Part shown: positions 544-31,394 of the stretch, piece after piece
How positions within the stretch are numbered: the stretch's first letter is position 1
Layout: every line of letters starts with the position of its first letter
From: an uncultured Chloroflexia bacterium
GTDB lineage: Bacteria > Chloroflexota > Anaerolineae > Anaerolineales > Anaerolineaceae
Assembly (NCBI GenBank): GCA_963704755.1
Contig: OY969938.1
Span: 1,380,001 to 1,412,000 of the forward strand
Direction: 5' to 3'
DNA length: 32,000 bases
Position numbers and translations under genes: made by a program
Notes under the pieces: generated by a model
Database searches by the model: none
The model's input: the letters and a program-made list of their open reading frames with translations, nothing else
What the model was told of the DNA's origin: nothing

Positions 544-549
544 AGATGC

Positions 550-876
550 TCACTTTTTTTGAAAAAACAAAGTCATGTATGAGCTTTTATTTAATTTTCC
601 CAATACATAATTTATCGGAAAAAGTACTATTCTGAAAAACATGGAATTTGTAAATCTTTCAAGAATTTTATAAAGAAAATTGTTGCTTTCCATATCAGAA
701 TAAATAAATTTAAGCGAAATAACTACTCCCCCAAAATTTCCGGTAAAGCTTTTAATGCCCTTATATTCAAAATCCTCTTTACGAATTAGTTTTCTGATAG
801 TAGAACGCGAGAAAAGAAAAAAGTGCCGGGGAACATCCCATCCTGCCCAATACTTGCCAAAAATTCTGGAGTCCAA
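550..876 (-). CDS. C-terminal fragment of a class I SAM-dependent methyltransferase. It belongs to the same gene as 920..1474, split by a frameshift.
   Basis: The ORF-track protein starts (TTG) DSRIFGKYWAGWDVPRHFF..., the conserved C-terminal block of this methyltransferase family. Reading the same frame upstream gives KPGGWLILNIPNPDSL, which continues directly from the end of ORF 920..1474. Confidence 0.7.
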   Translation of the reverse strand: MDSRIFGKYWAGWDVPRHFFLFSRSTIRKLIRKEDFEYKGIKSFTGNFGGVVISLKFIYSDMESNNFLYKILERFTNSMFFRIVLFPINYVLGKLNKSSYMTLFFQKK

Positions 877-919
877 AGAATCCGGATTAGGAATATTTAA
901 TATTAACCACCCGCCTGGT

Positions 920-1474
920 TTAAAGAATCCTTTTAGTTTCCGTTATAGAGGAGAGCGGATCTTTTAAATGCTCTAATACATCCCAATAAGTTACAACATC
1001 AAAAAAATTATCTTCAAAATTTGATTCCAATAAATCAACATTTCTTACACTTAATCCTAATGTCTCATTCGCGTACTTCGAAGCAATTTCGGAAGTTTCA
1101 ACTCCAAAAGCTTCCCATCCCTTTTCTTTAAATCTCCTGAGCAATAAACCAGTAGCACACCCAACATCAAGAATTCTTCCAGGAAAGCGCACCTTATCCA
1201 TGACCGCAAAATACTTTTTCGTTATAGCAAAGCTTTTATCAATCTTTTGAAATTTACTTTCGTCCGAGTTTATTTTTTGAAAAGCCAAATAGTTGTCTGG
1301 ATAATACAATTCCAGTTCTTTTCCATTTGGGCGCGTTTCAAGAAAATAAAGGCCACATTGTTGACACTGAACTAGCCGAAATTCTCCCCCTAGTTTATGC
1401 AACATATCTTGACCGCTAAATACTAAGGCGAAAGTAGCGCTTCCGCACAATATGCATTGGTTTACTTTCTCCAA
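920..1474 (-). CDS. N-terminal fragment of a class I SAM-dependent methyltransferase: Cys4 zinc-ribbon plus Rossmann motif I.
   Basis: The protein has CILCGS...CQQCG (zinc ribbon), then ILDVGCATG (SAM motif I) and DVVTYWDVLEHLKDP (motifs II/III). It ends ...ETKRIL* exactly where family members continue with KPGG. Confidence 0.8.
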   Translation of the reverse strand: MEKVNQCILCGSATFALVFSGQDMLHKLGGEFRLVQCQQCGLYFLETRPNGKELELYYPDNYLAFQKINSDESKFQKIDKSFAITKKYFAVMDKVRFPGRILDVGCATGLLLRRFKEKGWEAFGVETSEIASKYANETLGLSVRNVDLLESNFEDNFFDVVTYWDVLEHLKDPLSSITETKRIL

Positions 1475-1485
1475 AGAATTACCTT

Positions 1486-2655
1486 TTAATCCTTAATAAG
1501 ATGATCATAAAATACTTCTAACTCATTGGCTCTTTTTTCCCAATTATACTGGGTCTCTGCTATATACCTGGCATTTCCACCCATAATTTTGCGTAATCCC
1601 TCATTGCTTAAGAGAGCAAGGATATTCCTTGCATGCTCGCGAAAATCCGGTTCACATAATATGCCAATATTCTCGTGAGAAAAAACTAATGATATATCTC
1701 CCACATCTGAACTTATGATTGGCTTTCCAATAGCCAAATAATCTGTCAATTTTAAAGGAAGCCTTCCTTGGTTTGCTATAGAGTTTGTTAATGGCAACCA
1801 TAAAATATCACACGCATTAAGGAGATAATTTACTCGACCAATTGGAAGAGCGCCTGTCATTATTACAAATTCCGAATTTGCAATTAATTTTTTTATATCA
1901 AACGGGAAATATCCAATTATAAGAAACAGGATTTTAGGGTTTGTTTTATGCACCTCGTTAATTGTATCGATCATTAGGAGAGCATCTTTGTAAAAGATTG
2001 TTCCTAAATAACCCACAATATGATTAAATGAATTAAGATGCTCGTTTTTTCTGGCTTGATCTATCGGAACCGGATAAAAATTTTCTAAATCTGAGCCATT
2101 AACAATTCTTTTTATTCGCATCTGATCCACACCTAAAGCAATAGCTCTTTCGTATAAACAATTGCAAATTACTGTAGTCCCTTCAGGAATAAGACGAAAT
2201 TTATTTTCAAAGAATGTTTCAATAGGCCTTAATAATAATTTCACTAACGGATTAACTCGTTCTTCGATTGACCCACCTTTACCAAGCCAATCTGCCCAAT
2301 CCAGAAAAATGTGTTTTATCCGTTTTCTAGCCCAAAGTATCGGAATAATGACTGTAGGTCGGGTGTCAAATCCATGAATTAAGTCAAACTTTTTCCCACG
2401 CATCCATAGTATTCTGCGAACAACATTATATAAATCCCAGCCTGATCTCAACGAACCAAAAAGTAAATCGGGCATAAGGACTATCTGAACATTATCAATT
2501 CTTTTCTCTTCTAGAGATATTTTGTTTTTCTCTGAAGTAGCAATTAAATAAACCTCGTGCCCTTTTCGGGCTAAAGATTTTGAAAAATTAAACGCACGCC
2601 AATAAGACCCTTTATAGACCTTGTTATAACAGACCATCAAAATTTTCATAATCAC
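1486..2655 (-). CDS. Glycosyltransferase family 4 (GT-B fold, 389 aa).
   Basis: The N-terminus MKILMVCYN...KGHEVYLIA is typical of a GT4 N-domain. Size and a C-terminal E..G....E-type region fit the family. Its start overlaps the stop of the upstream GT2 by 4 nt (2652-2655). Confidence 0.75.
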   Translation of the reverse strand: MIMKILMVCYNKVYKGSYWRAFNFSKSLARKGHEVYLIATSEKNKISLEEKRIDNVQIVLMPDLLFGSLRSGWDLYNVVRRILWMRGKKFDLIHGFDTRPTVIIPILWARKRIKHIFLDWADWLGKGGSIEERVNPLVKLLLRPIETFFENKFRLIPEGTTVICNCLYERAIALGVDQMRIKRIVNGSDLENFYPVPIDQARKNEHLNSFNHIVGYLGTIFYKDALLMIDTINEVHKTNPKILFLIIGYFPFDIKKLIANSEFVIMTGALPIGRVNYLLNACDILWLPLTNSIANQGRLPLKLTDYLAIGKPIISSDVGDISLVFSHENIGILCEPDFREHARNILALLSNEGLRKIMGGNARYIAETQYNWEKRANELEVFYDHLIKD

Positions 2656-3398
2656 TCTTTAAAAAATATTCCATCCTTCAATCCACGCCAATAAGCTTTA
2701 AAGGATAATATCCGGTTTCTAAATAAAAGACGATAACTCGTTTTTAATGCACTGCAAAATCTCCAGAAAAAGATTATTGGAATTTGAAATTTCTTTGCAT
2801 ATCGCTTAAAAAAAACAACGCTGGACCGCGCCATCCAATAACGTTCGTTTTCAGAATCCGATCCATCGCTAGAAACACTTACTTTATGCCAAATTATTGC
2901 CTTAGGAACTAAATATTGGGGTATTTCAGCTTTATTAAGCCTCATACCAAAGTCACGGTCTTCATAATATAAAAAAAAATGCTCATCAAATAGGCCAATA
3001 CTACCAAAGACTTCTTTAGGAATTAGGAGGGCACAGGCGGTAAGAAAATCTCGTTTAATTATAGTTTCATTCATAAATACCTTTTTTGAGCTCTTTTTTA
3101 CTTCAAGTGTGATTTTATTTAAATCCCCGCCCATTGACCAGATTTTCTCTTTTTTATCGAAGTAACAAATTTCTGGTCCAGTTATGCAGCGGCAATTTTT
3201 TAAAGGCAGGAATAAATTAATTAGCATATCAGGATCACAAACAGTATCATTATTTATAATAAATATAAATTCTGCCCCACAATTTATACAATACTTTATT
3301 CCAATATTAAATCCTCCAGCGAAACCCAAATTTTTCTCAAGCGCAATAATTTCTATATCAGGATGTTTGGCAACTATTTTTTTAATTGAAGTATCCAT
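2652..3398 (-). CDS. Glycosyltransferase family 2, main fragment. The N-terminal ~45 residues lie upstream in another frame.
   Basis: Motifs seen: LEKNLGFAGGFNIG, FIINNDT (DxD region) and YYEDRDFGMR (ED motif). Reading this frame upstream of the annotated Met gives ISFSKIVVVDNGS, the first GT2 acidic motif. Confidence 0.8.
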   Translation of the reverse strand: MDTSIKKIVAKHPDIEIIALEKNLGFAGGFNIGIKYCINCGAEFIFIINNDTVCDPDMLINLFLPLKNCRCITGPEICYFDKKEKIWSMGGDLNKITLEVKKSSKKVFMNETIIKRDFLTACALLIPKEVFGSIGLFDEHFFLYYEDRDFGMRLNKAEIPQYLVPKAIIWHKVSVSSDGSDSENERYWMARSSVVFFKRYAKKFQIPIIFFWRFCSALKTSYRLLFRNRILSFKAYWRGLKDGIFFKE

Positions 3399-3438
3399 TG
3401 AACCATTGTCGACTACTACAATTTTGGAAAATGAAATT

Positions 3439-3543
3439 TCATTTTGACACTTTTAATGAAGAAATACAATCAATGGTATCATCTGGCTTTTTCCAATTTA
3501 CAGTTACTGCAAAAATATTGGGATTACTGGCTAAAACATTCAT
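3439..3543 (-). pseudogene. Detached N-terminal fragment (34 codons) of the GT2 gene at 2652..3398.
   Basis: Hand translation gives MNVLASNPNIFAVTVNWKKPDDTIDCISSLKVSK*, the canonical GT2 start (V.V.NW.....T..CL.SL). Dropping one base from the TTTT run at 3442-3445 fuses it in frame to NEISFSKIVVVDNGS of the downstream ORF. Confidence 0.6.
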
Positions 3544-6797: not shown

Positions 6798-7029
6798 TTT
6801 GTAATTACTCAGCCACTTAGAGGATGAGGGTGTTTTTATTATTTTTTGATGGGGTAAAGCCCAGAGCAATCGCATCATGCCAAATTGGCCCTAGCAGGCA
6901 TACTGCAATCGCTCCGAGGTAAAGCCCATATTTGAGGTGTTGCCGCCCGGGATATAATTAGATGGGTAGCGGGGAGGATCCATCCCGAGACACTCCCCGG
7001 TAAGAATTCATACCCATAGCGAGGTTCTC

Positions 7030-9146: not shown

Positions 9147-9188
9147 TCCGCCGGCGGTAACCGTTCAGTCTACCGAGTAAGAACCCCC

Positions 9189-9237
9189 GATTTGAGGCAT
9201 TTGCGGTCGGAGTCTTTGACCGCAAATGCCTCAAATC
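9189..9237. repeat. Perfect 20-bp-stem hairpin, family 1 (GATTTGAGG-TTTGCGG type). Probable terminator of the DinB gene.
   Basis: The arm gatttgaggcatttgcggtc (9189-9208) is the exact reverse complement of 9218-9237, with a 9-nt loop. Related copies lie at 25187 and 27903. Confidence 0.8.
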
Positions 9238-9501
9238 AGGGAGCTTTTTAAGTAAACCCGTAATCCGATTGACTGGTCTCCAGGCCAAATCATAAATCCC
9301 CCCAACCCACTTAGCAAGGGGGCAAGGACCAGCGAGCTATTCCCCCCTTGGAGGTCGTGAAGCATTCAGAATACGCGCATGAATTCTTGAAAACCTGCTA
9401 TCGTATGGCGCCGAATATAGGCCGGGAGGTTCTTCACAGCCTCAACAAGGGGGGCAAAGGGGGGATTCTTTCTGCTTGCGAAGTAAAATATATTTTCCAT
9501 A

Positions 9502-9530
9502 TTGACAAATCCCGTCAGATTACCTACAAT
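9502..9530 (+). promoter_or_regulatory. Consensus sigma-70-type promoter of the lysine (AAA) operon leader.
   Basis: TTGACA at 9502-9507, an exact 17-nt spacer, then TACAAT at 9525-9530. The ATG of the first leader ORF (9537) is 7 nt downstream of the -10 box. Confidence 0.65.
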
Positions 9531-9536
9531 AGGCCC

Positions 9537-9620
9537 ATGTTTAGCAATCAAGTTGAATTAAACGTTTCCAAGAAGTTCGGTAAGAAGGCCTCCCAACCAC
9601 TCACGTGGTCTGGAAAATAG
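9537..9620 (+). CDS. Leader peptide 1 (27 aa, MFSNQVELNVSKKFGKKASQPLTWSGK), with two AAG-AAG lysine codon pairs.
   Basis: Hand translation. It lies in frame inside track ORF 9348..9620 but starts after the promoter. Lys codons are at 9570-9575, 9582-9587 and 9615-9617. It is followed by terminator 1. Confidence 0.6.
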   Translation: MFSNQVELNVSKKFGKKASQPLTWSGK

Positions 9621-9647
9621 CGCTTACCCGAACGTTGGAATTTGAGC

Positions 9648-9679
9648 CACCTCACCAGACCCGGTGAGGTGTTTTTTTT
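9648..9679 (+). terminator. Intrinsic terminator / attenuator 1.
   Basis: CACCTCACC (9648-9656), a 6-nt loop, GGTGAGGTG (9663-9671), then T8 (9672-9679). Confidence 0.8.
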
Positions 9680-9693
9680 CCCAAAAGGCAATA

Positions 9694-9798
9694 ATGAACA
9701 GAAACAGCAGTTCCGCAAACATTACCACCCATCTCGATAAGAAGGCCAAGAAGCACATGCCGGATGCAGATCTGGATAAGCGCACTTGCCTGGAATAA
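9694..9798 (+). CDS. Leader peptide 2 (34 aa, MNRNSSSANITTHLDKKAKKHMPDADLDKRTCLE), with two AAG-AAG lysine codon pairs.
   Basis: Hand translation. AAGG lies 5 nt upstream of the ATG. Lys codons are at 9739-9744, 9748-9753 and 9778-9780. It is followed by terminator 2. Confidence 0.55.
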   Translation: MNRNSSSANITTHLDKKAKKHMPDADLDKRTCLE

Positions 9799-9817
9799 GA
9801 GAAATCAGTTGGTACCA

Positions 9818-9856
9818 GCGGGCTTGCCAGATCAAACGGCAAGCCCGTTTTTTATT
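9818..9856 (+). terminator. Intrinsic terminator / attenuator 2, 33 nt before the homocitrate synthase start.
   Basis: GCGGGCTTGCC (9818-9828), a 9-nt loop, GGCAAGCCCG (9838-9847), then TTTTTTATTT. Confidence 0.8.
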
Positions 9857-9888
9857 TATATCGGCGGAAACGCCAGGAAAGAGGTCTC

Positions 9889-11103
9889 ATGAGTCTGGAA
9901 CATTTTTCGATCATCGAATCTACACTGCGCGAGGGTGAACAGTTCGTCAATGCATTTTTCACCACCGAGCAGAAAATTCAAATAGCCCACCTGCTGGACG
10001 ATTTTGGGGTGGAATACCTCGAGCTGACCACCCCGGCCGCCTCCACCCAAAGTGCGCGTGACTGCGAAACCATCGCCGGCCTGGGCCTGCGCGCCAAAAC
10101 CCTCACCCATACCCGCTGCAATATCAATGACGTGCGCCAGGCCGTCGAGACCGGTGTGGATGGGGTGGATATTGTGATCGGTACCTCATCCTATCTGCGT
10201 GAGTTCAGCCATGGCAAGAGCATCGACACCATCATCGAAATGGCCCAGGAAGTGTTGGAATATCTGAGCCATTTCAACGTAGAAATGCGCTTCAGCACCG
10301 AAGATTCCCTGCGCAGTGACCCGGCCGACCTCTTCCGGGTGTACGCAGCCGTCGACAAGCTGGGCGTCAACCGGGTCGGCATCGCCGACACGGTGGGAAT
10401 CGGTAACCCCCGCCAGATTTACGAACTGGTCAGTGAACTGCGCTCGCGCGTCCACGCCGATATCGAATTCCACGGCCACAATGACACCGGCTGCGCCATC
10501 GCGAATGCCTTCGCCGCCCTGGAAGCCGGCGCCACCCACATCGATACCAGCATTCTGGGCATCGGCGAACGCAACGGCATCACCCCCCTGGGCGGCCTGG
10601 TCGCCCGCCTGTACGCCATAGATCCCGGGCTGGTATCCAAATACAACCTGCCCATGATGCTGGAGCTCGACCAGACCATCGCCAAAATGGTGGGGGTGGA
10701 CATCCCTTTCAACAATTACATCACCGGTTTCTCGGCCTTCACCCATAAAGCCGGCATCCACGCCAAAGCCGTGCTCAACAACCCCTCAACCTACGAAGTG
10801 CTGCGGCCCGAAGATTTCGGCCTGACCCGCTACATCCACATCGCCCACCGCCTGACCGGCTGGAACGCCATCCGCTACCGCGCCGACCAGTTGAACATCC
10901 CCCTGACCGACGACGAAATCAAAAGTATCACCGAACGGATCAAACAGCTCTCCGACCAGTACAACATTACCCTCGATGAAGTTGACCGGCTGCTCTACGC
11001 GGCCAGCTCGAACGCTGACATTACCGCTGAAACTGTAGTCGAAACCGCTACCCCCTTACTCAATCCGGAAAGGACTTCCCAAAATGGGACAAACGCTCTC
11101 TGA
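9889..11103 (+). CDS. hcs: Homocitrate synthase (AAA lysine pathway).
   Basis: [26 protein letters not shown] and [15 protein letters not shown] are near-identical to the blocks I recall from Thermus thermophilus HCS. At 404 aa the size fits. The genomic context is homoaconitase, HICDH and LysX. Confidence 0.85.
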
Positions 11104-12337
11104 ACAAATTCTTTCGCATGCCTCCGGCCGCTCGATCCGCCCGGGCGACCTGGTTATCGTTGAACCGGAAGTGGTGATGAGCCACAATTCGTTGACTCCC
11201 AGTATTATTAAAATCGCCCAACAGGAATTAGGGATGACCGAGATCCGCCACCCGGAGCGGCTGGTCTTCGTCCTCGACCACGTTTCGCCGCCTTCCACGG
11301 TCGGCACGGCCAATGCGCAGAAAGTGGTCCGTACCTTCGCCCAGGAGAACAATGTGCGCCTGTTCGACGTAGGCCGCGGCATCTGTCACCAGGTGCTGGT
11401 AGAAGAACGTATCGCTGCGCCCGGCAAAATTGTGGTGGGCTCCGATTCGCACTCCACCGGCTATGGTTCGGTATGCGCCTTCGGCACTGGCATGGGCTCC
11501 ACCGACGTGGCCCTGGTGTGGGCCACCGGGCGCACCTGGCTGCGCGTGCCCGAAACGATCCGCATCCGGGTGCATGGCCGCTTTAGCCAATGGGTGGGGG
11601 CCAAAGACCTGGCCCTGAAAATTTGCCAGACCCTGACCATTGCCGGCGGAAACTACGCCGCGCTAGAATATCACGGCCTGGATTGGCTGGACCTGCCCGG
11701 CCGCCAGACCCTGGCCAGCATGGCCGTCGAGGTTGGCGCGAAAGTCGGCCTGGTACCGCCCAGCGGGGAAGCTGCCCGCGATTGGGATGTACCGGATTGG
11801 CTGTTCGTCGATCCTGAAGCGAGCTATGCCCGAACGGTGGACATCGATTTGGACGAATTACACCCACAGGTTTCCATCCCGCACGCGGTCGACCACGTCG
11901 CGGACCTGCCCGAAGTGGCCGGCACCCATGTGGATATGATCTTCCTGGGTACCTGTACCAACGGGCGCTACGAAGATATGCGCGCCGCCGCCAATATCCT
12001 GCGCGGCCGGCACGTCGCCAGCAGTGTGCGCATGCTGGTTACCCCCGCCTCCAGCCGCGAGATGGCCCGCGCGGCCGCCGATGGCACCCTGACCGAGCTG
12101 ATCGAAGCCGGCGCCGTGCTGACCTCGCCCGGCTGCGGCGCCTGTATGGGCCGCCACCAGGGTACCCTGGGTGAAAACGACGTCTGCCTGTCCACCGGCA
12201 ACCGCAATTTCCGTGGCCGTATGGGCGCGCCCACCTCGCAAATCTACCTGGCCTCCGCTGAAGTGGCCGCCGCCACCGCCCTGACCGGGGTCATCACCCA
12301 CCCGGCTGAGGTTGCCGTGGAAAACGCCCGCGCATAA
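11084..12337 (+). CDS. hacA: Homoaconitase / 3-isopropylmalate-dehydratase-type large subunit (short archaeal-type, 417 aa).
   Basis: Aconitase family motifs are present: [16 protein letters not shown] and SPGCGACMG (Fe-S Cys ligands). It overlaps hcs by 20 nt. The homoaconitase role is inferred from context, not from sequence alone. Confidence 0.8.
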
Positions 12338-12366: not shown

Positions 12367-12582
12367 AGGGCAAAAAGCGCCGGCCAAACAGCCCATGGGT
12401 TTGTTAAACCAGCGCTGTGCCCCCCTTCCCCGCTTCCCCCCAAATCAAAAACCGATTTGGAGGGAAGGGCCAGATTCCTCCCCTAAAATCCGCACTTTGG
12501 ATTTTGGGGGAGGCCAGGAGGGGGCAAAAAGCGCCGGCCAACCAACCCATTGGCTTGTTAAACTAGCGCTGTGCCCCCTTTC
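12367..12582. repeat. Two direct repeats of about 62 bp, each a hairpin, flanking two smaller hairpins within the hacA-hacB spacer.
   Basis: gagggcaaaaagcgccggccaaacagcccatgggtttgttaaaccagcgctgtgcccc (12367-12425) versus gagggggcaaaaagcgccggccaaccaacccattggcttgttaaactagcgctgtgcccc (12518-12578). The inner hairpins are cttccccccaaatc/gatttggagggaag and cctcccctaaaatcc/ggattttgggggagg. Confidence 0.75.
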
Positions 12583-12637
12583 CCGAACCTGTTACCTAAA
12601 TCTTCATTATCATTTAGCTGATAAAAAGGAGTTATCG

Positions 12638-13132
12638 ATGCCTAGAGTATGGAAATTTGGATCCGATGTGGATACCGACCAGATCGTGCCCGGGCGCTAC
12701 GCGCCTTACATGCGCCCGGACGCGGATGTCGGCGATGCGGCCTTCATCGAAGCCCGCCCGGAGTTTGCCCAAAACGCCCGCCCAGGCGACGTGATCGTCG
12801 CCCTGGACAATTTCGGCTGCGGCTCCTCGCGGGAATACGCGGTCGAGGCGCTCAAACGGCGCCAGGTCGGCGCGATCATTGCCCGCGGATACGCGCGCAT
12901 CTTCTTCCGCAACGCGCTTAACCTGGGTATTCCCCTCATCACCGCCCCCGACGTGGTCGAGGCCCTCCAGGACGGCGACGAGATCAGCCTGGACCTGGTC
13001 AAAAGCGAACTCTCCCGCGGGAACGAAATGTTTATTCTGCCCGAATTTCCCGAATTCGCCCGCGAGATCCTGGCAGCCGGCGGGATCGTGCCCTACGTAC
13101 GCGAACATCATCGCTTCCCGGGGGAACAATGA
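12638..13132 (+). CDS. hacB: Homoaconitase / isopropylmalate-dehydratase-type small subunit (164 aa).
   Basis: The sequence reads MPRVWKFGSDVDTDQIVPGRY...GCGSSREYAV...IIARGYARIFFRNALNLG. The AAGGAG RBS lies 7 nt upstream of the ATG at 12638. The track ORF 12395.. is an upstream read-through across the repeat region. Confidence 0.85.
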   Translation: MPRVWKFGSDVDTDQIVPGRYAPYMRPDADVGDAAFIEARPEFAQNARPGDVIVALDNFGCGSSREYAVEALKRRQVGAIIARGYARIFFRNALNLGIPLITAPDVVEALQDGDEISLDLVKSELSRGNEMFILPEFPEFAREILAAGGIVPYVREHHRFPGEQ

Positions 13133-14136
13133 GTTCTGCCCAATTGTGCGTCATCGAGGGAGATGGGATCGGCCACGAGGTCATCCCGGCGGCCGTGCAG
13201 GTGCTGCGTATGGCCGTCCCCCAGTTGGAAACAATCCAGGCCGAAGCCGGCTGGGATTGTTTCCAACGCAGAGGGGTCTCAGTCCCACCCGAAACCCTGG
13301 AGGCTTTACGCGCCTGTGGCGCCGGGTTGTTCGGGGCGGTCTCTTCCCCTTCCCATAAAGTCGAGGGTTACCGCAGCGCCATCCTGACCATGCGCCAGGA
13401 GCTGGACCTGTACGCCAACCTGCGCCCGGTCCGCAGTCTGCCGGGGGTCTCTCCCCGGACAGGCATCGACTTCGTCATCGTGCGCGAGAATACCGAGGGA
13501 TTGTACGCCGGGCGTGAGCGCCTGGAAGGCGACACGGCCATCGGTAAGCGCATCATCACCCGCCAGGCTTCCCGGCGGATCGGCCTGCGCGCGCTGGAGT
13601 TGGCCCGTTCGCGACCGCGCAAACGCCTGACCATCGTCCACAAAGCCAACATCCTGCCGGTGACGGATGGGCTTTTCCGCGATACCGTCCGTGAGGCGGC
13701 CGCCGAGACCGGCGCAGAGTCGGCCGGTGTGGTCATCGAGGAGGTGCTGGTGGATAACGCCGCTTATCAAATCGCCGCCAACCCGGAGCGCTTCGACGTC
13801 ATTGTAACTACCAACCTGTTCGGCGACATCCTTTCGGACGAAAGCGCGGTCTGGTGTGGCGGGATGGGCCTGGCCCCTTCGCTGAACTGGGGCGACGGCC
13901 TGGCCCTGGCCGAGCCGGTCCACGGCTCTGCACCCGATATCGCCGGTAAAGGCATCGCTAACCCGATCGCGGCCATCCTCAGCGCGGCCCTGCTGGCGCG
14001 TTATGCCTGGAACATGAACGCCGCCGCCGAACGGATCGAAAGCGCGGTTTCCATCTGCCTGGCCGCCGGTCAAGCCGGCGCCGGGGCCACCACGGCCGAA
14101 ATCACCCAGGCCATCCTCCGGCACCTGGATGAATAA
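13129..14136 (+). CDS. Homoisocitrate dehydrogenase (isocitrate/isopropylmalate dehydrogenase family, 335 aa).
   Basis: Motifs seen: LYANLRP, VRENTEGLY, NLFGDILSDE and GSAPDIAGKGIANP. It overlaps the hacB stop (ATGA). The HICDH assignment comes from cluster context. Confidence 0.8.
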   Translation: MSSAQLCVIEGDGIGHEVIPAAVQVLRMAVPQLETIQAEAGWDCFQRRGVSVPPETLEALRACGAGLFGAVSSPSHKVEGYRSAILTMRQELDLYANLRPVRSLPGVSPRTGIDFVIVRENTEGLYAGRERLEGDTAIGKRIITRQASRRIGLRALELARSRPRKRLTIVHKANILPVTDGLFRDTVREAAAETGAESAGVVIEEVLVDNAAYQIAANPERFDVIVTTNLFGDILSDESAVWCGGMGLAPSLNWGDGLALAEPVHGSAPDIAGKGIANPIAAILSAALLARYAWNMNAAAERIESAVSICLAAGQAGAGATTAEITQAILRHLDE

Positions 14137-14140
14137 GAAA

Positions 14141-14800
14141 TAAACCACGAAGAATTTAACCACGGAGGCACGGACCCTGGCACCGCCCGCCAGGGCAGGT
14201 GGGGCACGGAGAAGAAAAGAGTTTATCCCTGAGCACACAGAGGCCACAGAGAAGAAAGAGGAGAAATGAGTAAAATTGATGGCCGAAAGGACAAAGACCT
14301 GCAGCGGATCGGCCCGGTCTCCAGACCGAGGCCGCTCTTCATTGCAAATTAGTGGTTCGCTGCGATTCGGGTCGTGCGTTTGGTTGTCGTTGCGAGCGGT
14401 TTGTGCGACCCTGCACCTGCGGTTCTGGGCAGGTGAGCAATATCAACAATACCCGAATAGCTCAATGGCCAGCGTTGAGATTGCCACTGGCAGCAAAAAA
14501 CGCTGCCTTCACAACGACAACCAAACGCAAAACCTGAATCGCAGGCAATTCCTTATTTGCGTAGAAGAGCGGCCTCGGTCTGGAGACCGGGCCGATCCAC
14601 CTTAGGCCATCGCTCTTTTAAACAGGACCTTCTCATCCTCTCTTTCTTTTCTCTGTGAACTCTGTGTACTCTGTGGTTAAATTCCTTTTTTCTCCGTGCT
14701 CTGAGATTAATCCCTTTCTTCTCCGTGTTCCACCTGCCCTGGCGGGCGGTGCCAGGGTCCGTGCCTCCGTGGTTTATCTTTCTTCGTGGTTATTTTTTCT
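14141..14800. repeat. Nested imperfect palindrome of about 660 bp. It has outer CTCCGTG/CTCTGTG-type arms, a 35-bp core inverted repeat and an inner inverted repeat around a unique centre of about 110 bp.
   Basis: 14158-14202 is the exact reverse complement of 14730-14774 (45 bp). The core ggatcggcccggtctccagaccgaggccgctcttc (14306-14340) is the reverse complement of 14564-14598. The inner inverted repeat is cgattcgggtcgtgcgtttggttgtcgttg versus caacgacaaccaaacgcaaaacctgaatcg. Confidence 0.85.
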
Positions 14801-14867
14801 CTGTGGTTATTCTTTCTTTACCTAACCCATATTTATTCCCGGCAAGACGCCGGACAAGGAATTCTCA

Positions 14868-15716
14868 ATGAAAATCGGTGTTTTATTTTCTCGACTACGT
14901 GTGGAAGAGAAATGGATCTTTGAAGCCCTGGAAAAACGCGGGGTGGACTATGACCGTATCGACGACCGCCGGGTCACTTTCAACGTGACCAACCCGGGCG
15001 AATGGCTGCAATACGACGTGGTGCTGGTCCGCAGCCTGTCGTATCACAATGGACTATACGCAGCCCAGGTGCTCAACTCCTGGGACATCCCCACGGTCAA
15101 CTCGGCCCGCGTCGCGGCCACCTGCGGGGACAAACTGGTGACCACGACGGCCCTGGCCCAGGCCGGCATCCCCCAGCCGCAGGTCTGGACGGCCTTTTCG
15201 ACGGACGCTGCCCTGGAAATCATGGACCAGATCGGCTACCCGGTGGTGCTGAAGCCGCTGGTGGGGTCGTGGGGGCGTTTGTTATCCAAAGTCAACGACC
15301 GGGACGCGGCCGAGACCATTCTGGAGCACAAAGAAGTGATGGGCGGCCCGCAGCATAGTGTGATTTACATCCAGGAATACATCCACAAACCCAGCCGGGA
15401 CATCCGCAGTTTTGTGATCGGCGACCACACCGTGTGCGCCATCTACCGTGAGGCCGAACACTGGATCACCAATACCGCCCGCGGCGGCAAAGCCGAAGTC
15501 TGCCCGGTGACGCCCGAACTGGACCAGTTGAGCGTCGCCACGGCCCAGGCGGTCGGCGGCGGGGTCATCGCCGTGGATATTCTCGAAGATCCCGAACGCG
15601 GTTACCTGGTCAACGAGGCCAACCACACCATGGAATTCCATTCCACCGTGCCCCTCACCGGTGTGGATATCCCCGGCATGCTGGTGGATTACGCCCTTTC
15701 GATTGCGAGGAAGTGA
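14868..15716 (+). CDS. lysX: LysX: ATP-grasp alpha-aminoadipate--LysW ligase (RimK/LysX family).
   Basis: [53 protein letters not shown] and [11 protein letters not shown] closely match the T. thermophilus LysX blocks as I recall them. Size is 282 aa. Confidence 0.85.
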
Positions 15717-15784
15717 GGGGAAGGGGAGCAGGCAACGAGGCAATAAGGGATAAGGCAACAAGGTAATCAGTGAAGCCCTAAAGT

Positions 15785-15865
15785 GGATCGGCCCGGTCTC
15801 CAGACCGAGGCCGCTCTTATTGGCCGGCCAATAAGAGCGGCCTCGGTCTGGAGACCGGGCCGATC
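15785..15865. repeat. 81-bp palindrome made of two abutting copies of the same 35-bp core found in the 14141-14800 element.
   Basis: ggatcggcccggtctccagaccgaggccgctctta ttggccggccaa taagagcggcctcggtctggagaccgggccgatc. The left flank (15722-15765) is rich in GGCAACGAGG-type words; the right flank carries their complement. Confidence 0.85.
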
Positions 15866-15984
15866 GCTTTGGCCAATTGAGCTTCCTGCCAGATTACTGT
15901 GGTGACTGATCGCCTCCTTGCCTTCTTACCTCATCCCCTCATCGCCTCATCGCCTCCTTGCCCTCTTACCTTATTGCCTTTTTG

Positions 15985-16176
15985 CCTCATCGCCTCGTTG
16001 CCTCATCGCCTCGTTGCCTCATCCCCTCGTTGCCTCATCGCCTCGTTGCCTCATCCCCTCGTTGCCTCATCCCCTCGTTGCCTCATCCCCTCGTTGCCTC
16101 ATCCCCTCGTTGCCTCATCCCCTCGTTGCCTCATCCCCTCGTTGCCTCATCCCTTATTGCCTCATCCCCTCGTTGC
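15985..16176. repeat. Tandem array of 12 copies of a 16-bp unit, CCTCATC(G/C)CCTCGTTG. Degenerate copies extend from about 15910 to about 16195.
   Basis: Direct reading. The units are in register every 16 nt from 15985. Only position 8 (G/C) and one unit (cccttattg) vary. Confidence 0.9.
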
Positions 16177-16332
16177 CTTCTCCCTCCCCTCTTTCCGCCG
16201 TATAATAGTTCCCAACAAGTTAACTAAATCGGGGTTATCCGCAAGCGCCGGTTAGAACTATAAGAATTTTCTCTTCAAAAAAATATCTCTCCTGCCTGCA
16301 CGCCCCTTAAAATTATCTGCATCGAGGAAAAT

Positions 16333-17085
16333 ATGGAATTCAAACCCATCTGGCGCGAAGAATTACACGTGCGCGCCTACGAAACGGATTTTAATAACCG
16401 TTGGAAACCGACCAGTTATTTCCAGGCGATGGAAGAAGCCGCCACCAACCATGCCCGTCACCTGGGCTATGATTATCCTGACATGCTGGCGCAAGGCATG
16501 GTCTGGGTGCTGACCCGCCTGAAAATCTATTTCTACGACTATCCCAGCATTCCCGACCCGGTTATTATCGAGACCTGGCCGCGGGGCATCCAGCAAAAGA
16601 TCTTTTTCACCCGCGATTTCCGCCTGTCTTCTCCCGAAGGCCGGCTTTATGCGGCCGCCACCTCTGCCTGGCTGCTGATCGACCCGGTCCAGCGCCGCAT
16701 GCTGCGCCCCGACCGCCTGTCCAACCATTTACCTCAGAACGAAGGCCATTTCGCGGTGAACGAACTGCTGGAAAAGATTCCCCAGCCGGATAATTTGCAG
16801 GAATGCGCCCGCGTCAAAGCCGAATACAGCGACATCGACATGATCGGGCACGTCAACAACGCCCGTTACATCGACTGGGTCAGCAACTGCTTCCCGATGG
16901 AACAATACCAAAATTCCCGCCTGGACTGGCTGCAAATCAATTACAACAACGAGGTCAAGGCAGGTGAAACGGTCGTCCTTTCGGCTGCCCAGAACAGCGC
17001 CGAACCCAACCGCTGGTTCATCCTGGGCAGCAACCCGTCCAGCGGAATGCCTAATTTCGAAGTCGATCTGGGGTGGCGGGAGTAG
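16333..17085 (+). CDS. Acyl-ACP thioesterase (FatA/FatB-like double hotdog, 250 aa).
   Basis: Motifs seen: YETDFNNRWKP, MVWVLTRLKI and DIDMIGHVNNARYIDW (catalytic D..GHVNN). GAGGA lies upstream. Confidence 0.8.
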   Translation: MEFKPIWREELHVRAYETDFNNRWKPTSYFQAMEEAATNHARHLGYDYPDMLAQGMVWVLTRLKIYFYDYPSIPDPVIIETWPRGIQQKIFFTRDFRLSSPEGRLYAAATSAWLLIDPVQRRMLRPDRLSNHLPQNEGHFAVNELLEKIPQPDNLQECARVKAEYSDIDMIGHVNNARYIDWVSNCFPMEQYQNSRLDWLQINYNNEVKAGETVVLSAAQNSAEPNRWFILGSNPSSGMPNFEVDLGWRE

Positions 17086-17150
17086 CTGTTAGCGGTTAGC
17101 GGTTGGCTTTTAGCGATTGGCCGTTAGCGGTTGGCCGTTAGCGGTCAGCT
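17086..17150. repeat. Heptamer-period tandem repeat arm (GTTAGCG / GTTGGCC variants).
   Basis: agctgttagcggttagcggttggcttttagcgattggccgttagcggttggccgttagcggtcagctg. It is complementary in type to the arm at 17330-17436. Confidence 0.8.
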
Positions 17151-17294
17151 GCAATGGAGGGTGTCGTTGAGCGCGGATGAAGGTAATGCCATCGATTTAC
17201 CTAAAGAAAGATATTTCCAGGCGTGCCTTCAACAAACTAGCAACGCTTGTCTATAATCACCTTGGGCACTAAGAAATGCTCCAGCTAAACCAAA

Positions 17295-17324
17295 AAGCAG
17301 GCCGGTCAAAAGACCGGCCTGCTT
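17295..17324 (-). terminator. 13-bp GC-rich hairpin. Probable terminator for the serpin gene (T-run on the minus strand).
   Basis: aagcaggccggtc aaaa gaccggcctgctt. On the minus strand the stem is followed by tttggttt. Confidence 0.6.
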
Positions 17325-17329
17325 CCTAA

Positions 17330-17436
17330 AAGCTAATGGCTAACAGCTAACCGCTAACGGCTAACCGCTAATCGCCAACAGCTAATCGCCAACAGCTAAT
17401 CGCCAACAGCTAATCGCCAACAGCTAACAGCTACCC
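17330..17436. repeat. Heptamer/14-mer tandem repeat arm (GCTAACAGCTAAC..., then 4 copies of CTAATCGCCAACAG).
   Basis: Direct reading. The first 26 nt (ctaaaagctaatggctaacagctaac) recur at 20966-20993. Confidence 0.8.
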
Positions 17437-17437
17437 G

Positions 17438-18817
17438 CTAATTGCTCGTTCCCGGATTCTCCATCCGGCCCATGAACAAAACCGACCCGCTGGTGTTATC
17501 CAGGATCATGAAGATGAACGGGTGATCCAGCGTGACGGTCACCTCATTCGCCATCATCGAGGTCAGACCGGCCACCACGCCGGTCGCAGCAGCCGCTTCG
17601 GTGCCGTCTTCGTCCACATTGACATAGGCCTTGTGAACGACATTGTTGATGTACAGGTCCTGGCGGCCATCCATCTTCGAAAAATCGGCCGCGGATGGGT
17701 CGAAAGCATCCGTCATTCCCAGCGCTTTGAGCGTGTCGCTCAAGCCGAAGGATGATTCGATCTTGAAGCTGGGCATGCTCAAGGTGACTTCCGCCGGTTG
17801 CAGGCCATCCCGGATCTTCTGGATCTGGTCGGCCGTGAGCGACTGCTCGAACGAACCCAGACTGCCTGCATCCGGCATAACTGCGATCATGGCGTAATTC
17901 CCGCCGGCATAGGGCATTTCGACCGCCTGGTAGCCATCGCTCTTCAGGTAAGTGAGCGAATCGCGGACGTGCATGGTCGGCGTTTGGATGGTCGAGCCGC
18001 CGGCTAGGGTGAAATCGGCCGGGGCTGTCTGGCTCTTATCGAACGGGTACTGCCAGGCTGCCTTGAAATAGATCGCGTTGGCCAGCACCAGGCGGGTCAT
18101 CGGGTCGATTGCCCCTTGCGGAATAAGGTCCTGGATTTTGTTGGCGGTCTGGTCGGCCACCCACTGGTTGATCTGCTGGCGGACTGTCTCAGAATCCTGG
18201 AAGTCCACCGGGTAGATCCCGCTGCCATAATATTGCGCCAGGGTATCCAGAAAGGCCGGCAGGAAATCGAAATCATGCTGAGCCCAGATCGAATTGGCGA
18301 TATCCAGCTTGAAGCCACCCTTTGTCGAGCTATTCTGGCCGCCCTCCAGGGACTGGTCCAGGGCATTGAAGGCCGGGTTCAGCCGGCCGGCAGGCCGGCT
18401 GAAGTGCAGCGTGTCCGCCATCTGGGTGGCGGTATCGTTATTGGCGCCGCTGGCGGTCATCGCCAGGGCCAGTGAAATACTGTAAGGTGAAAAGAACAGG
18501 TTGCCATCCTGGCCGCGCAACTGCTGGTAAAGCGCCGTCGCAAAGGCGGTGTTATCGCTGACCAGTTGCTGAATGTCGTCCTGCGAGACGGTTGCATCAG
18601 TTATGCGGGGCTGGTTCGAGACCAGTTCGACCCCGGGTTGGGCAGGTGTTTTCACGGTATCCTCCCCGGTCTGGGTGGGAGCTGGCGTTATGGGGACGGC
18701 CGGGCCGACGGGAGTCACCGTTTGCGCCGGTGAAGCGGTTGCAGCCGGGCTGCAGGCGGTCAGCCCCAGAAGGAACACCAGGCCAAAAAGAAATATATTA
18801 CGGATATTGGCTTTCAA
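17438..18817 (-). CDS. Serpin-family protease inhibitor, lipoprotein form (459 aa).
   Basis: Signal peptide plus lipobox FLLGLTAC, then a Pro/Thr linker. The serpin body includes NLFFSPYSISLALAM, NAIYFKAAW and the C-terminal signature DHPFIFMILDNTSGSVLFMGRMENP. Confidence 0.85.
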   Translation of the reverse strand: MKANIRNIFLFGLVFLLGLTACSPAATASPAQTVTPVGPAVPITPAPTQTGEDTVKTPAQPGVELVSNQPRITDATVSQDDIQQLVSDNTAFATALYQQLRGQDGNLFFSPYSISLALAMTASGANNDTATQMADTLHFSRPAGRLNPAFNALDQSLEGGQNSSTKGGFKLDIANSIWAQHDFDFLPAFLDTLAQYYGSGIYPVDFQDSETVRQQINQWVADQTANKIQDLIPQGAIDPMTRLVLANAIYFKAAWQYPFDKSQTAPADFTLAGGSTIQTPTMHVRDSLTYLKSDGYQAVEMPYAGGNYAMIAVMPDAGSLGSFEQSLTADQIQKIRDGLQPAEVTLSMPSFKIESSFGLSDTLKALGMTDAFDPSAADFSKMDGRQDLYINNVVHKAYVNVDEDGTEAAAATGVVAGLTSMMANEVTVTLDHPFIFMILDNTSGSVLFMGRMENPGTSN

Positions 18818-18952: not shown

Positions 18953-19009
18953 AGGGGTGTTTTATTATTTTTCGCATGCTTCGCATGCGAAAAATAATAA
19001 AACACCCCT
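18953..19009. repeat. Perfect 27-bp-stem hairpin, family 2 (AGGGGTGTTTTATT...CGCATGC type).
   Basis: aggggtgttttattatttttcgcatgc (18953-18979), loop ttc, then the exact reverse complement at 18983-19009. Confidence 0.85.
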
Positions 19010-20558: not shown

Positions 20559-20618
20559 GAATAATCCTGAATTCGCAATCTACAACAACCCCATTATTAT
20601 AGCACACAATTTCTATTA

Positions 20619-21003
20619 GGAAGGGACCAGGCAACGAGGCGACAAGGCAACGAGGTGCAGGTGTAGGGTGGGTGCAGGGCTCGAATATTACCCGAGCGGA
20701 TTATCCATCTGCATGACATACCAAACCTTGCCCGTAACCCACCGTTTTACATTCTACAGGTAAAGGGACCAGGCAACTAGGCGACAAGGCAAAGAGGTGT
20801 AGAGTGGGTGCAGGGCTCAAAAATTACCCGAGCGGATTACCGATCGGCATAACATACCAAGCTTGCCCGTAACCCACCGTCTGGTTGTAAAATGGTGGGT
20901 TACGGGCAAGCTTGATACGTCAGAAAACTTAATATTTGCCAATTTTCTCAATGAGCCCTGCACCCACCCTTGCTAAAAGCTAATGGCTAACAGCTAACAG
21001 CCA
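20619..21003. repeat. Composite intergenic repeat: two direct repeats of about 140 bp, a 21-bp-stem hairpin, a distal 17-bp inverted repeat, and word-repeat arms shared with the 15.7-kb and 17.3-kb elements.
   Basis: gggaccaggcaacgaggcgacaaggcaacgagg...cttgcccgtaacccaccg (20619-20761) is repeated from 20764. The hairpin is aagcttgcccgtaacccaccg/cggtgggttacgggcaagctt type. gggtgggtgcagggctc pairs with gagccctgcacccaccc. Confidence 0.75.
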
Positions 21004-21023
21004 ATGTCCTCGTCTTCTTCCCC

Positions 21024-22439: not shown

Positions 22440-22579
22440 GGTACCAGTCAGGGAAAAATCATCCTTTTGTATTTATCAAAAGTAACTGCTCAGGCAAGTG
22501 CGCAAGGCGAAGACCTCTGCTGTAGCCAAGTAGTTACGATCAAAATACTAAGGGATTCCTGGCCGTTAAACTAAGCCGT

Positions 22580-22626
22580 TTGGATTTTATATTTTGGCGG
22601 CGTTGCCGCCAAAATATAAAATCCAA
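22580..22626. repeat. Perfect 22-bp-stem hairpin (AT-rich base, GC tip, 3-nt loop) in the GH3 5' leader.
   Basis: ttggattttatattttggcggc, loop gtt, gccgccaaaatataaaatccaa. Confidence 0.85.
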
Positions 22627-22675
22627 AACACGTTTTCCATTTCTTGCAAATTCTTACCTGGGAGGAAAAGGCATC

Positions 22676-25186: not shown

Positions 25187-25241
25187 CCCGAATTTGATAT
25201 GTTTGCGGTGGCAAAGCCACCGCAAACATATCAAATTCGGG
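25187..25241. repeat. Perfect 26-bp-stem hairpin, family 1, downstream of GH3.
   Basis: cccgaatttgatatgtttgcggtggc, loop aaa, gccaccgcaaacatatcaaattcggg. Confidence 0.85.
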
Positions 25242-25271: not shown

Positions 25272-25329
25272 AGGTCGTTTTTATTATTTTTTGCATGCGA
25301 AGCGTGCAAAAAATAATAAAAACGACCTG
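25272..25329. repeat. 27-bp-stem hairpin, family 2 variant (one G-T pair).
   Basis: aggtcgtttttattattttttgcatgc, loop gaa, gcgtgcaaaaaataataaaaacgacct. It is followed by ggctgagtagttac. Confidence 0.85.
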
Positions 25330-27902: not shown

Positions 27903-27955
27903 CCGAATTTGAGGTGTTTGCGGGGGCTTCGCCCCCGCAAACACCTCAAATTCGG
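27903..27955. repeat. Perfect 25-bp-stem hairpin, family 1, in the divergent GT39/pepF intergenic region.
   Basis: ccgaatttgaggtgtttgcgggggc, loop ttc, gcccccgcaaacacctcaaattcgg. Confidence 0.85.
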
Positions 27956-29940: not shown

Positions 29941-29999
29941 AGGGGTGTTTTTATTGTTTTTCGCGTGCGAAGCACGCGAAAAACAATAAAAACACCCCT
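29941..29999. repeat. Perfect 28-bp-stem hairpin, family 2.
   Basis: aggggtgtttttattgtttttcgcgtgc, loop gaa, gcacgcgaaaaacaataaaaacacccct. The flanks are homologous, in inverse orientation, to those of the 18953 copy. Confidence 0.85.
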
Positions 30000-31343: not shown

Positions 31344-31394
31344 CGAAAATAATGGAATTGCAATGGCAAAGCCATTGCAATTCCATTATTTTCG
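31344..31394. repeat. Perfect 24-bp-stem hairpin (AT-rich stem, TGGC-AAA-GCCA tip). Probable terminator.
   Basis: cgaaaataatggaattgcaatggc, loop aaa, gccattgcaattccattattttcg. Confidence 0.85.

Follow-up and report, generated by a model that had tools for sequence, protein, structure and literature searches.

Nested word-armed hairpins with a shared 34-bp core occupy the two spacers beside lysX in an Anaerolineaceae lysine operon

The DNA analysed here, called the window, is a stretch of 32,000 nucleotides from an uncultured Chloroflexia bacterium of the family Anaerolineaceae (GenBank assembly GCA_963704755.1, contig OY969938.1, positions 1,380,001 to 1,412,000). The gene lysX in this window is flanked by two large repeat elements, A in the upstream spacer and B in the downstream spacer, and both of them combine arms of short tandem words with an inverted pair of one 34-bp palindromic core. 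According to our analysis, A and B represent two layers of non-coding repeat DNA accumulated in the spacers adjoining lysX. They are probably selfish or neutral, and they do not form a mobile cassette; we put the probability of this reading at about 0.6. The comparisons described below demonstrate the anatomy of the elements, the independence of words and core, and the ancestral state of lysX. The genes and elements concerned are as follows.

13129-14136, plus strand: homoisocitrate dehydrogenase (HICDH) gene, the upstream operon neighbour of lysX (TIGR02088, 360.9 bits)
14137-14820, no strand: element A, a composite foldback of ~690 nt filling the HICDH-lysX spacer
14868-15716, plus strand: lysX, the LysW--2-aminoadipate ligase gene, intact and full length (TIGR02144, 350.7 bits against a cutoff of 275.6)
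15717-16200, no strand: element B, a foldback with arms of words and an apex that holds the core pair
16333-17085, plus strand: thioesterase-like gene downstream of lysX (TIGR00051, 41 bits, below the cutoff)

The core is the 34-mer GGATCGGCCCGGTCTCCAGACCGAGGCCGCTCTT. It is present four times in the window, two copies per element, as an inverted pair at each apex; according to 100 shuffled sequences, none is expected.

14306-14339, plus strand: core copy 1, element A
14565-14598, minus strand: core copy 2, element A
15785-15818, plus strand: core copy 3, element B
15833-15866, minus strand: core copy 4, element B, with one mismatch at its outer end

The core itself is an imperfect palindrome (GGCC-CGGTCT-CC-AGACCG-A-GGCC) with a stem of ~9 bp and one bulge; it was flagged as a hairpin and is visible in the folds. 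The cores of a pair are separated by 14 bp in B and by 225 bp in A, and the core-to-core total is 82-293 bp. A and B have in common only the core and ~13-16 nt of a weaker outward flank. The better-kept flank is located on opposite sides in A and B, and thus the two elements stand in opposite orientation. In the best case the similarity extends to 50 nt at 92% (14565-14614 against 15769-15818). The outer flanks of the four cores are GTGG, GTGG, GCGG and AGCG. The core pair is bordered by CCTGCAGC and ACCTTAGG in A and by CTAAAGT and GCTTTGG in B, and these borders are partly complementary and are not direct repeats.

Element A begins at the base right after the HICDH stop codon and ends ~45 nt 5' of the lysX start codon. 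It folds as one hairpin with an RNA minimum free energy of -437 kcal/mol (z = -27.6). The left arm shows 79% column identity to the reverse complement of the right arm, with two perfect blocks. The arm alignment is a mosaic: the outer block is near-perfect, the word region that follows is degenerate and contains a 30-nt indel, and the core is perfect. Inside the cores, the inner arms are ~80% complementary, and then an unpaired, non-palindromic centre of 113 nt follows.

14158-14241: outer left arm of A, AACCAC[GA][GA]AG-type words and a GC hairpin (CCCTGGCaccgcccGCCAGGG), pairing with 14691-14774 (84 nt, 88% complementary)
14340-14564: interior of A between the cores, partly palindromic, with no RNA-family or protein-family match
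14650-14676, plus strand: CTCTGTG-NN word block in the right arm of A
14691-14774: outer right arm of A, complement of 14158-14241

Element B begins at the base right after the lysX stop codon and ends ~130 nt 5' of the thioesterase start. The fold of 15717-16332, which comprises B and the spacer to the thioesterase start, gives z = -10.7. At the apex, the residues 15786-15865 form a perfect 40+40 palindrome without a spacer, centred on ATTGGCCGGCCAAT (core, ATTGGCCGGCCAAT, inverted core).

15722-15770, plus strand: left arm of B, ~6 purine-rich octamers of GGCAACGAGG / CAATAAGG words (CAACGAGG, CAATAAGG and similar)
15913-16184, plus strand: right arm of B, ~34 octamers CCTNNTNN, rich in pyrimidines and arranged as a lattice, which complement the words of the left arm
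15985-16176, plus strand: homogeneous block of 12 copies of CCTCATC(G/C)CCTCGTTG, each 16-mer being two octamers
16201-16206, plus strand: TATAAT hexamer, 22 bp past the array end, function unsupported

In the right arm, 31 octamers are in register at 15913-16160, and a few more are found past a 1-nt slip. According to Tandem Repeats Finder (TRF), the array at 15982-16178 has a period of 16, 12.4 copies and 95% matches. The C variant is present in seven of the 12 16-mers, six of them consecutive, and the array has a regular 8/16-bp periodicity with conserved CCT..T.. positions. The long arm matches the short arm at both of its ends, outer and inner, so that its surplus corresponds to an internal expansion of ~28 octamers. 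The 16-mer block, judged from its homogeneity, looks like a recent one-sided expansion. The 16-mer array pattern had no match in viral contigs, and neither the words of B nor GCTAACN words were found as arrays in 144 loci (1.15 Mb). A CRISPR reading of the repeats was rejected, as the units are contiguous without unique spacers.

The sequence GATCGCCTCCTTGCC (15908-15922), at the inner end of the right arm of B, resembles the 3' end of 16S rRNA, which is GATCACCTCCTTA, and the purine-rich left-arm words are Shine-Dalgarno-like. The likeness of 15908-15922 to the rRNA end is probably a coincidence of composition.

An earlier note on this DNA, made from the letters alone, had described lysX as flanked on both sides by one palindromic family and the downstream cores as head-to-head; the identical cores in both spacers and the perfect palindrome at 15786-15865 bear this out. 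All four cores that it listed are present, and only the start of the second upstream copy is shifted, from 14564 to 14565. The upstream element, which it took for a first copy of the core palindrome, does carry the core pair; it is more than two cores, as the whole 14137-14820 spacer is one hairpin. The left-arm words, the complementary right arm and the 12 copies of the 16-mer were described correctly, but the repeat arm is ~270 bp and its 16-mer is a double octamer. The TATAAT hexamer, reported as a consensus directly abutting the array, is located at 16201-16206, as described. However, it is separated from the array by 22 bp, no -35 hexamer is present 16-18 bp from it, and no promoter is predicted there. 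A length-variable array, as proposed in the note, is plausible, because the units are homogeneous and comparable unequal arms occur in the related loci L071, L082 and L057. Classical phase variation is not supported. The array lies upstream of the putative -10 hexamer, so that promoter spacing would be unaffected by a gain or loss of copies. A phase-variable contingency locus was also rejected on the grounds that the array is located outside open reading frames (ORFs) and not between promoter elements, and that its period, 16, is not divisible by 3.

lysX belongs to an alpha-aminoadipate lysine operon encoded in the window with the gene order HCS-HacA-HacB-HICDH-LysX. The genes upstream of HICDH are as follows.

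9889-11103: homocitrate synthase
11084-12337: homoaconitase large subunit
12395-13132: homoaconitase small subunit

The closest LysX relatives are from Anaerolineaceae and Anaerolineae metagenome-assembled genomes (MAGs), and the nearest match, from Anaerolineaceae MAGs, is 80% identical. The order HCS-HacA-HacB-HICDH-LysX is kept in all three relatives with called genes. Their HICDH-LysX gaps are 76, 33 and 33 bp, so that a spacer of 33-76 bp stands against the ~690 nt of A, and the genes downstream of lysX differ. For a wider comparison, 80 further loci from species-representative genomes were used, and the neighbours were placed by tblastn. Among the 22 loci whose LysX is at least 70% identical, 20 have HICDH directly 5' of lysX (estimated gap 2-120 bp), and the identity to the contigs of a given relative is similar for LysX and for HICDH. 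The thioesterase gene had no tblastn match in any related locus, and it is not a conserved neighbour of lysX.

These results indicate that lysX is the ancestral, terminal gene of a conserved operon and has been vertically kept. As HICDH lies directly upstream with a short gap in 20 of 22 close relatives, element A is an insertion or expansion within the conserved operon. As the thioesterase gene is absent next to lysX in relatives and the downstream genes differ, element B is located at a synteny break, at the operon's end. The geometry had been likened in the earlier note to a MITE-bracketed cassette (MITE, miniature inverted-repeat transposable element), and a comparison of relatives for presence or absence of lysX had been suggested there. 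In that comparison lysX has a conserved position and is not accessory. A gene bracketed as in a composite transposon should be accessory and variable among relatives, which lysX is not; its flanks are insertions into ancestral spacers.

Arrays of short words were surveyed with TRF (period 6-9, at least 4 copies) in 81 non-redundant related loci of 779 kb in total. The survey gave 68 arrays spread over 26 of the loci, and shuffled sequence gave none. No array was found in 68.7 kb of lysX coding sequence, compared with 11 arrays in 23.6 kb of the flanks within 150 bp. A word array is present within 150 bp of lysX in 10 of the 81 loci, and on both sides of the gene in L034. These arrays are unrelated to A and B and share no core, and thus a bracketing special to lysX is not supported. 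For no fewer than eight arrays a complementary array lies adjacent, and the copy numbers of the two often differ.

L057: unequal complementary arms, 4.6 and 7.9 copies
L062: unequal complementary arms, 8.9 and 5.5 copies
L082: unequal complementary arms, 9 and ~3 copies
L071: unequal complementary arms, ~5 and 17 perfect copies, downstream of lysX

On the basis of these arrangements, the architecture of B (short arm, apex, and expanded complementary arm directly past a stop codon) can be regarded as a recurrent type. Hairpin-bearing spacers in the relatives include HICDH-lysX, lysW-lysX, lysY-lysZ and argG-argH. Two relatives have an enlarged HICDH-lysX spacer, and in both the spacer holds palindromic DNA unrelated to A. 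One is L016 (4740-4935), with a GTAG-tagged inverted pair TCGTAGGGGCGCAGCTATACGGGCC...GGCCCGTACAGCTACGCCCCTACTGG. The other is L023 (1690-2410), where CAGGAT words, a palindromic unit of ~200 bp in 3-4 copies (GTCATCCTGAGGA...TCTTCAGGATGAC, partly N-masked) and complementary ATCCTG words are found. Heptamer arrays are present in the same spacer of L082 and L086. GGTAATT/AATTACC heptamer hairpins were observed in two genomes, at L022:5960-5999 (lysW-lysX spacer) and at L034:888-962 (past a stop codon), and the presence of these words in both indicates that genomes of the class share word families.

The words of A have a much wider distribution. A 27-nt exact match was found between 14650-14676 of the window and the lysY-lysZ spacer hairpin of a distant Anaerolineae MAG (L046:7156-7228). 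It was the only match of blastn searches of A, B and the core against the 86 related loci; against plasmids, A and B gave no match. Related CACAGAG/CACGGAG hairpins are present at L022:4036-4092 (argG-argH spacer) and L075:2783-2818. An exact 25-mer of the arm of A, within the block 14650-14676, occurs in 58 metagenome contigs (50 distinct contexts, contig GC 0.37-0.63) and in one viral contig, and words of the CAC-N-GAG type recur across phyla. In 31 of the 50 contexts a complementary word arm is located within 200 nt of the 25-mer, with a median loop of 38 nt. The typical CACAGAG-NN hairpin of this family (window 14650-14676, L046, L022, L075 and L087-L145) reads AACCACAGAG..CACAGAG, loop, CTCTGTG..CTCTGTGGTT. 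In L113 and L135 the arms are ~400 nt apart and enclose a GxxExxY gene (TIGR04256, E = 3e-44 and 7e-46), and in L103/L142 such a gene comes directly after the arm. Neither the window nor the 86 related loci hold a GxxExxY gene or a remnant of it. The form seen most often is the simple hairpin with a short loop; it is therefore presumed to be the basic state, and the core pair and other contents of the apex would have arrived later.

One core is found in two word contexts, in A and in B, and one word family is found around different centres, in B and at 20620-20802. According to these combinations, words and cores behave as independent modules. The latter locus and another word-armed foldback in the window are listed here.

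17083-17442: word-armed foldback between the convergent thioesterase and serpin genes, with (TAGCGGT)n at 17083-17149 facing (GCTAACN)n at 17339-17442
20620-20802, plus strand: second locus of the 16-mer word family of B (GGCAACGAGGCGACAAGGCAACGAGG, twice, at ~20620-20660 and 20768-20802), flanking a different MITE-like element

Thus the GGCAACGAGG word family is located at two window loci, B and 20620-20802, and the GCTAACN family also at two, 17339-17442 and 20972-21001. The region 20612-21010 as a whole is a complex MITE-like structure, in which a ~150-bp unit (GGCAACGAGG words and TGTAGGGTGGGTGCAGGGCTC...CTTGCCCGTAACCCACC) is tandemly duplicated. An inverted copy of the unit's end comes next, and GCTAACA heptamers follow on the right.

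Several intergenic families of perfect palindromes with arms of 23-28 bp and loops of mostly 3 nt were also observed in the window.

18953-19009, 29941-29999, 25272-25328 and 6828-6848: palindrome family 1
25187-25241, 27903-27955, 9185-9241 and 6930-6941: palindrome family 2
31344-31394 and 22579-22627: other perfect palindromes

The copies differ mutually and most are internally perfect, which indicates that changes are compensated on both arms. Inverted GTAACTGCTCAGSC / GSCTGAGTAGTTAC motifs flank many of these palindromes at a distance of 15-30 nt, and this arrangement suggests MITE-like units of ~120 bp. Positions 1-3500 of the window have a GC content of ~0.33, compared with ~0.58 elsewhere, and encode minus-strand glycosyltransferases and a methyltransferase. 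Probably this region is a polysaccharide-synthesis island gained by horizontal transfer; the alternative is a join made in assembly.

For the lysine operon, a single strong promoter-like site is present, the near-consensus TTGACA-17-TACAAT at 9502-9530, ahead of the operon leader, and no promoter was predicted before lysX or before the thioesterase gene. Therefore, lysX is probably transcribed through A. In the leader (9502-9860), a 27-aa ORF (9537-9620, MFSNQVELNVSKKFGKKASQPLTWSGK) is followed by a terminator at 9648-9679, and a 34-aa ORF (9694-9798, ...HLDKKAKKHMPD...) by a terminator at ~9820-9856. Leader-peptide attenuation is known for the lysine cluster of Thermus, and the leader of the window resembles it. 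Judged from its two tandem units of Lys-codon leader peptide and terminator, 9502-9860 is a probable lysine-responsive leader.

In 11 of the 17 hairpins tested, A and B included, the antisense fold was equal to or better than the sense fold. An excess of G.U pairs on the sense strand, tested as a signature of RNA selection, was not found. The palindromy is at the DNA level and symmetric. In a lax terminator scan, the small hairpin of each core with its CTCTT(C/A)TT tail scores weakly as terminator-like; past the 40-bp stem of B the sequence is GATCGCTTTGG, not a U-run. Rfam gave no match at the gathering threshold. In E-value mode, EBV sisRNA-2 (47.2 bits against a gathering threshold of 41.8) and microRNA (miRNA)-precursor models matched 15786-15865, and they were rejected as generic long-hairpin matches, which could misguide automated annotation. 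The ORFs in A and B (61-118 aa) and a 159-aa antisense ORF (15282-15761) that overlaps the 3' end of lysX belong to no credible Pfam family, and the period of 16 makes coding repeats implausible.

Three kinds of known repeat come close to A and B. Repetitive extragenic palindromes (REP) form inverted doublets, REPINs, which are mobilised by RAYT transposases (PMC3116915, PMC3337134, PMC3733652), and have at one end a conserved tetranucleotide, GTAG or CGTC (PMC3733652). A genome holds tens to hundreds of extragenic REP copies, and the cognate RAYT gene, an IS200/IS605-type Y1 transposase gene, has the repeats at its flanks. The core resembles them as a short imperfect palindrome, paired head-to-head into a longer hairpin, extragenic, downstream of genes and with identical copies. 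Unlike them, it is longer than a typical REP stem, has no GTAG/CGTC tag and is nested in tandem-word hairpins; the 225 bp between the cores of A are atypical, no RAYT is encoded in the window, and only four copies at two loci are present in 32 kb. The core pairs are also like MITEs in their identical 34-bp terminal inverted repeats (TIRs), their short non-coding interior (14 bp in B, 225 bp in A) and their intergenic position. They differ from MITEs in that no target-site duplication surrounds the pair, no parent insertion sequence with the same ends was seen, and there are two copies within the window. The arrays, on the other hand, resemble the short tandemly repeated repetitive (STRR) heptamers of cyanobacteria, which form a hairpin between the co-transcribed hupS and hupL and were proposed to stabilise the transcript or couple translation (PMC2670836). 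Common to both are tandem intergenic words (7 nt in STRR, 7-9 nt here), word families at several loci, and complementary arrays that form hairpins within or between operons. The differences are the host (Anaerolineae of the Chloroflexota instead of a heterocystous cyanobacterium), the octamer/16-mer unit of B, the very unequal arms, the separate palindromic element at the apex, and the size of A (~690 nt), which is far above that of described STRR hairpins. Heptamer satellites have been noted in Chloroflexus aurantiacus in a survey of prokaryotic satellites (PMC6749651). Literature searches on heptamer repeats in Anaerolineae, Caldilinea and Chloroflexi gave only this survey with its mention of Chloroflexus, and in the papers available to these searches no description of such Anaerolineae hairpins was found.

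More distant parallels exist for the nesting and for the arms. Elhai and co-workers reportedly described in 2008 the SDR of Nostoc punctiforme, tiny hairpin-forming units (21-27 nt, single) nested in tandem heptamer arrays and in each other. They are alike in this nesting and unlike in sequence, in host and in that the 34-bp core occurs as inverted pairs. Eukaryotic foldback (FB) transposons have long inverted arms of short tandem repeats, unequal arms and a variable centre, are of kilobase scale and have their own transposase. The analogy to A and B is one of arm architecture only, and no homology is implied. Integron attC sites, which have conserved R''/R' core sites (RYYYAAC...GTTRRRY) and an intI gene nearby, were considered and rejected. 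One arm pair of A by chance reads ATTTAAC...GTTAAAT, but other units of A and the members of the family in metagenomes end in GTTTATC, GTTATTT, GGCTAA, GGTGAA or the like; conserved core sites are absent, and the window has no integrase. The locus is a REPIN- or MITE-like palindrome combined with STRR-like arrays, and it stands out by the size of a foldback within a conserved operon and by a word family found across phyla.

We propose the following course of events for the two layers. The first layer is an STRR-like hairpin of a short tandem word array and a complementary array, and this genome and many other Anaerolineae have such hairpins in the space from a stop codon to the following gene. 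Such arrays would lengthen and shorten by replication slippage, which would explain the asymmetry of 6 against 34 octamers and the homogeneous block of 12 16-mers in B. The second layer would be a lineage-specific, non-autonomous inverted pair of the hairpin-forming core, similar to a REPIN or to a minimal TIR-TIR MITE. The cores may have entered the single-stranded apex of pre-existing hairpins by transposition-like insertion. A would be tolerated in the operon through its self-folding, with the mRNA being read through and perhaps cut at the long stem, and side effects of the elements on RNA processing are possible. The presence of two copies around lysX would reflect the availability of spacers or local hopping.

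Several observations weigh against this proposal. None of the genes in the window encodes a transposase, recombinase, RAYT or integrase. No consistent GTAG/CGTC tag was found at the core ends and no target-site duplication around the cores, and a scan of genome, metagenome and viral contig collections with a 23-mer of the core gave no match. At position 20800 the MITE-like element has two non-complementary word arrays as neighbours and is not placed at a hairpin apex. The cores are identical while their immediate flanks are only ~60-80% alike, and a simple recent insertion does not explain this; selection or gene conversion acting on the core, or a preferred target GGCC-N-AAAG, could. Finally, the hairpins fit the spacers between stop codon and ribosome-binding site very exactly, and the same spacer is reused in other lineages. 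A selected function predicts both.

Such a function would be that of cis-acting RNA structures, in which A and B, as intercistronic or 3'-end stem-loops, serve as RNase III sites, barriers to 3'-5' exonucleases or attenuators; they would uncouple lysX from the upstream operon in stability or expression and insulate the thioesterase gene, with the core pair as the functional apex. This explanation is rather unlikely. Both elements start at the base past a stop codon and end ~45 and ~130 nt before the next start; similarly placed hairpins occur in many relatives, the four spacers named above among them, and for the hupS-hupL hairpins transcript stabilisation or translation coupling was proposed (PMC2670836). 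A weak terminator-like score with a tail was also obtained for each core, and the cores are perfectly kept in diverged flanks. However, the antisense folds and the lack of sense G.U excess leave no strand signature, and the arms are grossly unequal. Between relatives the turnover of sequences and word families is complete, the HICDH-lysX spacer of most close relatives lacks a hairpin altogether, and no U-tract follows the central stem of B. The periodicity of 8/16 bp with conserved CCT..T.. positions, the presence of one word family at separate window loci and the recurrence of CAC-N-GAG-type words across phyla would also suit protein-binding sites. The arrays might be iteron-like operators that a regulator or a nucleoid protein binds, or they might act as a sponge that takes up an RNA-binding protein specific for CU- or GA-rich words, with occupancy tuned by copy number. 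We regard this as improbable, as no candidate binding protein was identified, neighbouring spacers have different word families and so have relatives, and the arrays almost always have a complementary partner, which points to hairpins rather than linear binding arrays.

A recombination module around lysX would make use of the identical 34-bp cores, which lie in direct and inverted orientation 1.2-1.5 kb apart around one gene, with similarity up to the 50 nt at 92%. Exchange between direct cores (14306/15785 or 14565/15833) would delete lysX and exchange between inverted cores (14565/15785) would invert it, resulting in a switchable or mobilisable gene. Excision or inversion through repeats of 34-50 bp is physically possible, but the excision that the earlier note considered is not supported. 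A module of this kind is nevertheless very improbable. lysX is vertically conserved at its position, no recombinase or transposase is nearby, and loss of lysX would break the lysine pathway encoded by the rest of the operon. Moreover, 2 of ~25 window spacers are occupied, which gives by our own estimate a chance of ~8% for such adjacency, and word arrays beside lysX are common in relatives without any shared core. An assembly artefact, either a foldback chimera or a collapsed or expanded repeat, can be considered because perfect palindromes and long tandem arrays are error-prone and the exact 16-mer count comes from one assembly. We consider it extremely improbable. The structures lie between intact genes without duplicated coding sequence, several independent palindrome families are present in the window, and the same architecture is found in many independent assemblies of other genomes.

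The reading of A and B as two accumulated layers may also have a wider setting, which we put forward tentatively and as a doubtful possibility. Word-armed hairpins may form an undescribed cross-phylum class of foldback-like prokaryotic mobile elements with inverted arms of tandem CAC-N-GAG-type words, in which A and B are extreme nested cases. Members of this class would enter the gap that separates a stop codon from the following gene, and their apex would be empty or hold small palindromic repeats, the 34-bp core being one example, or a small GxxExxY gene of the PD-(D/E)XK type. By analogy with the intervening sequences of rRNA, they would be tolerated in operons, with the stem in the transcript read through or trimmed. 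The occurrence of the 25-mer in 58 metagenome contigs, and of a GxxExxY gene enclosed or directly preceded by the arms in at least three of the 50 contexts, leaves room for such a class.

In practical terms, MAGs suffer assembly errors at arrays and palindromes of this kind, and spurious ORFs and miRNA-like elements are called from them. For the locus, the idea of a mobile lysX is removed, and instead a ~690-nt foldback is found within a conserved amino-acid biosynthesis operon. A is thus a natural test case for transcription through, or processing of, very long intercistronic hairpins. Hairpins of complementary words, similar to STRR, are common in Anaerolineae, beyond the filamentous cyanobacteria, and one word family occurs in a large number of environmental genomes, in some cases around a small gene of nuclease-like type. 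Should such hairpins be mobile or functional, they would represent a neglected class of intergenic element.

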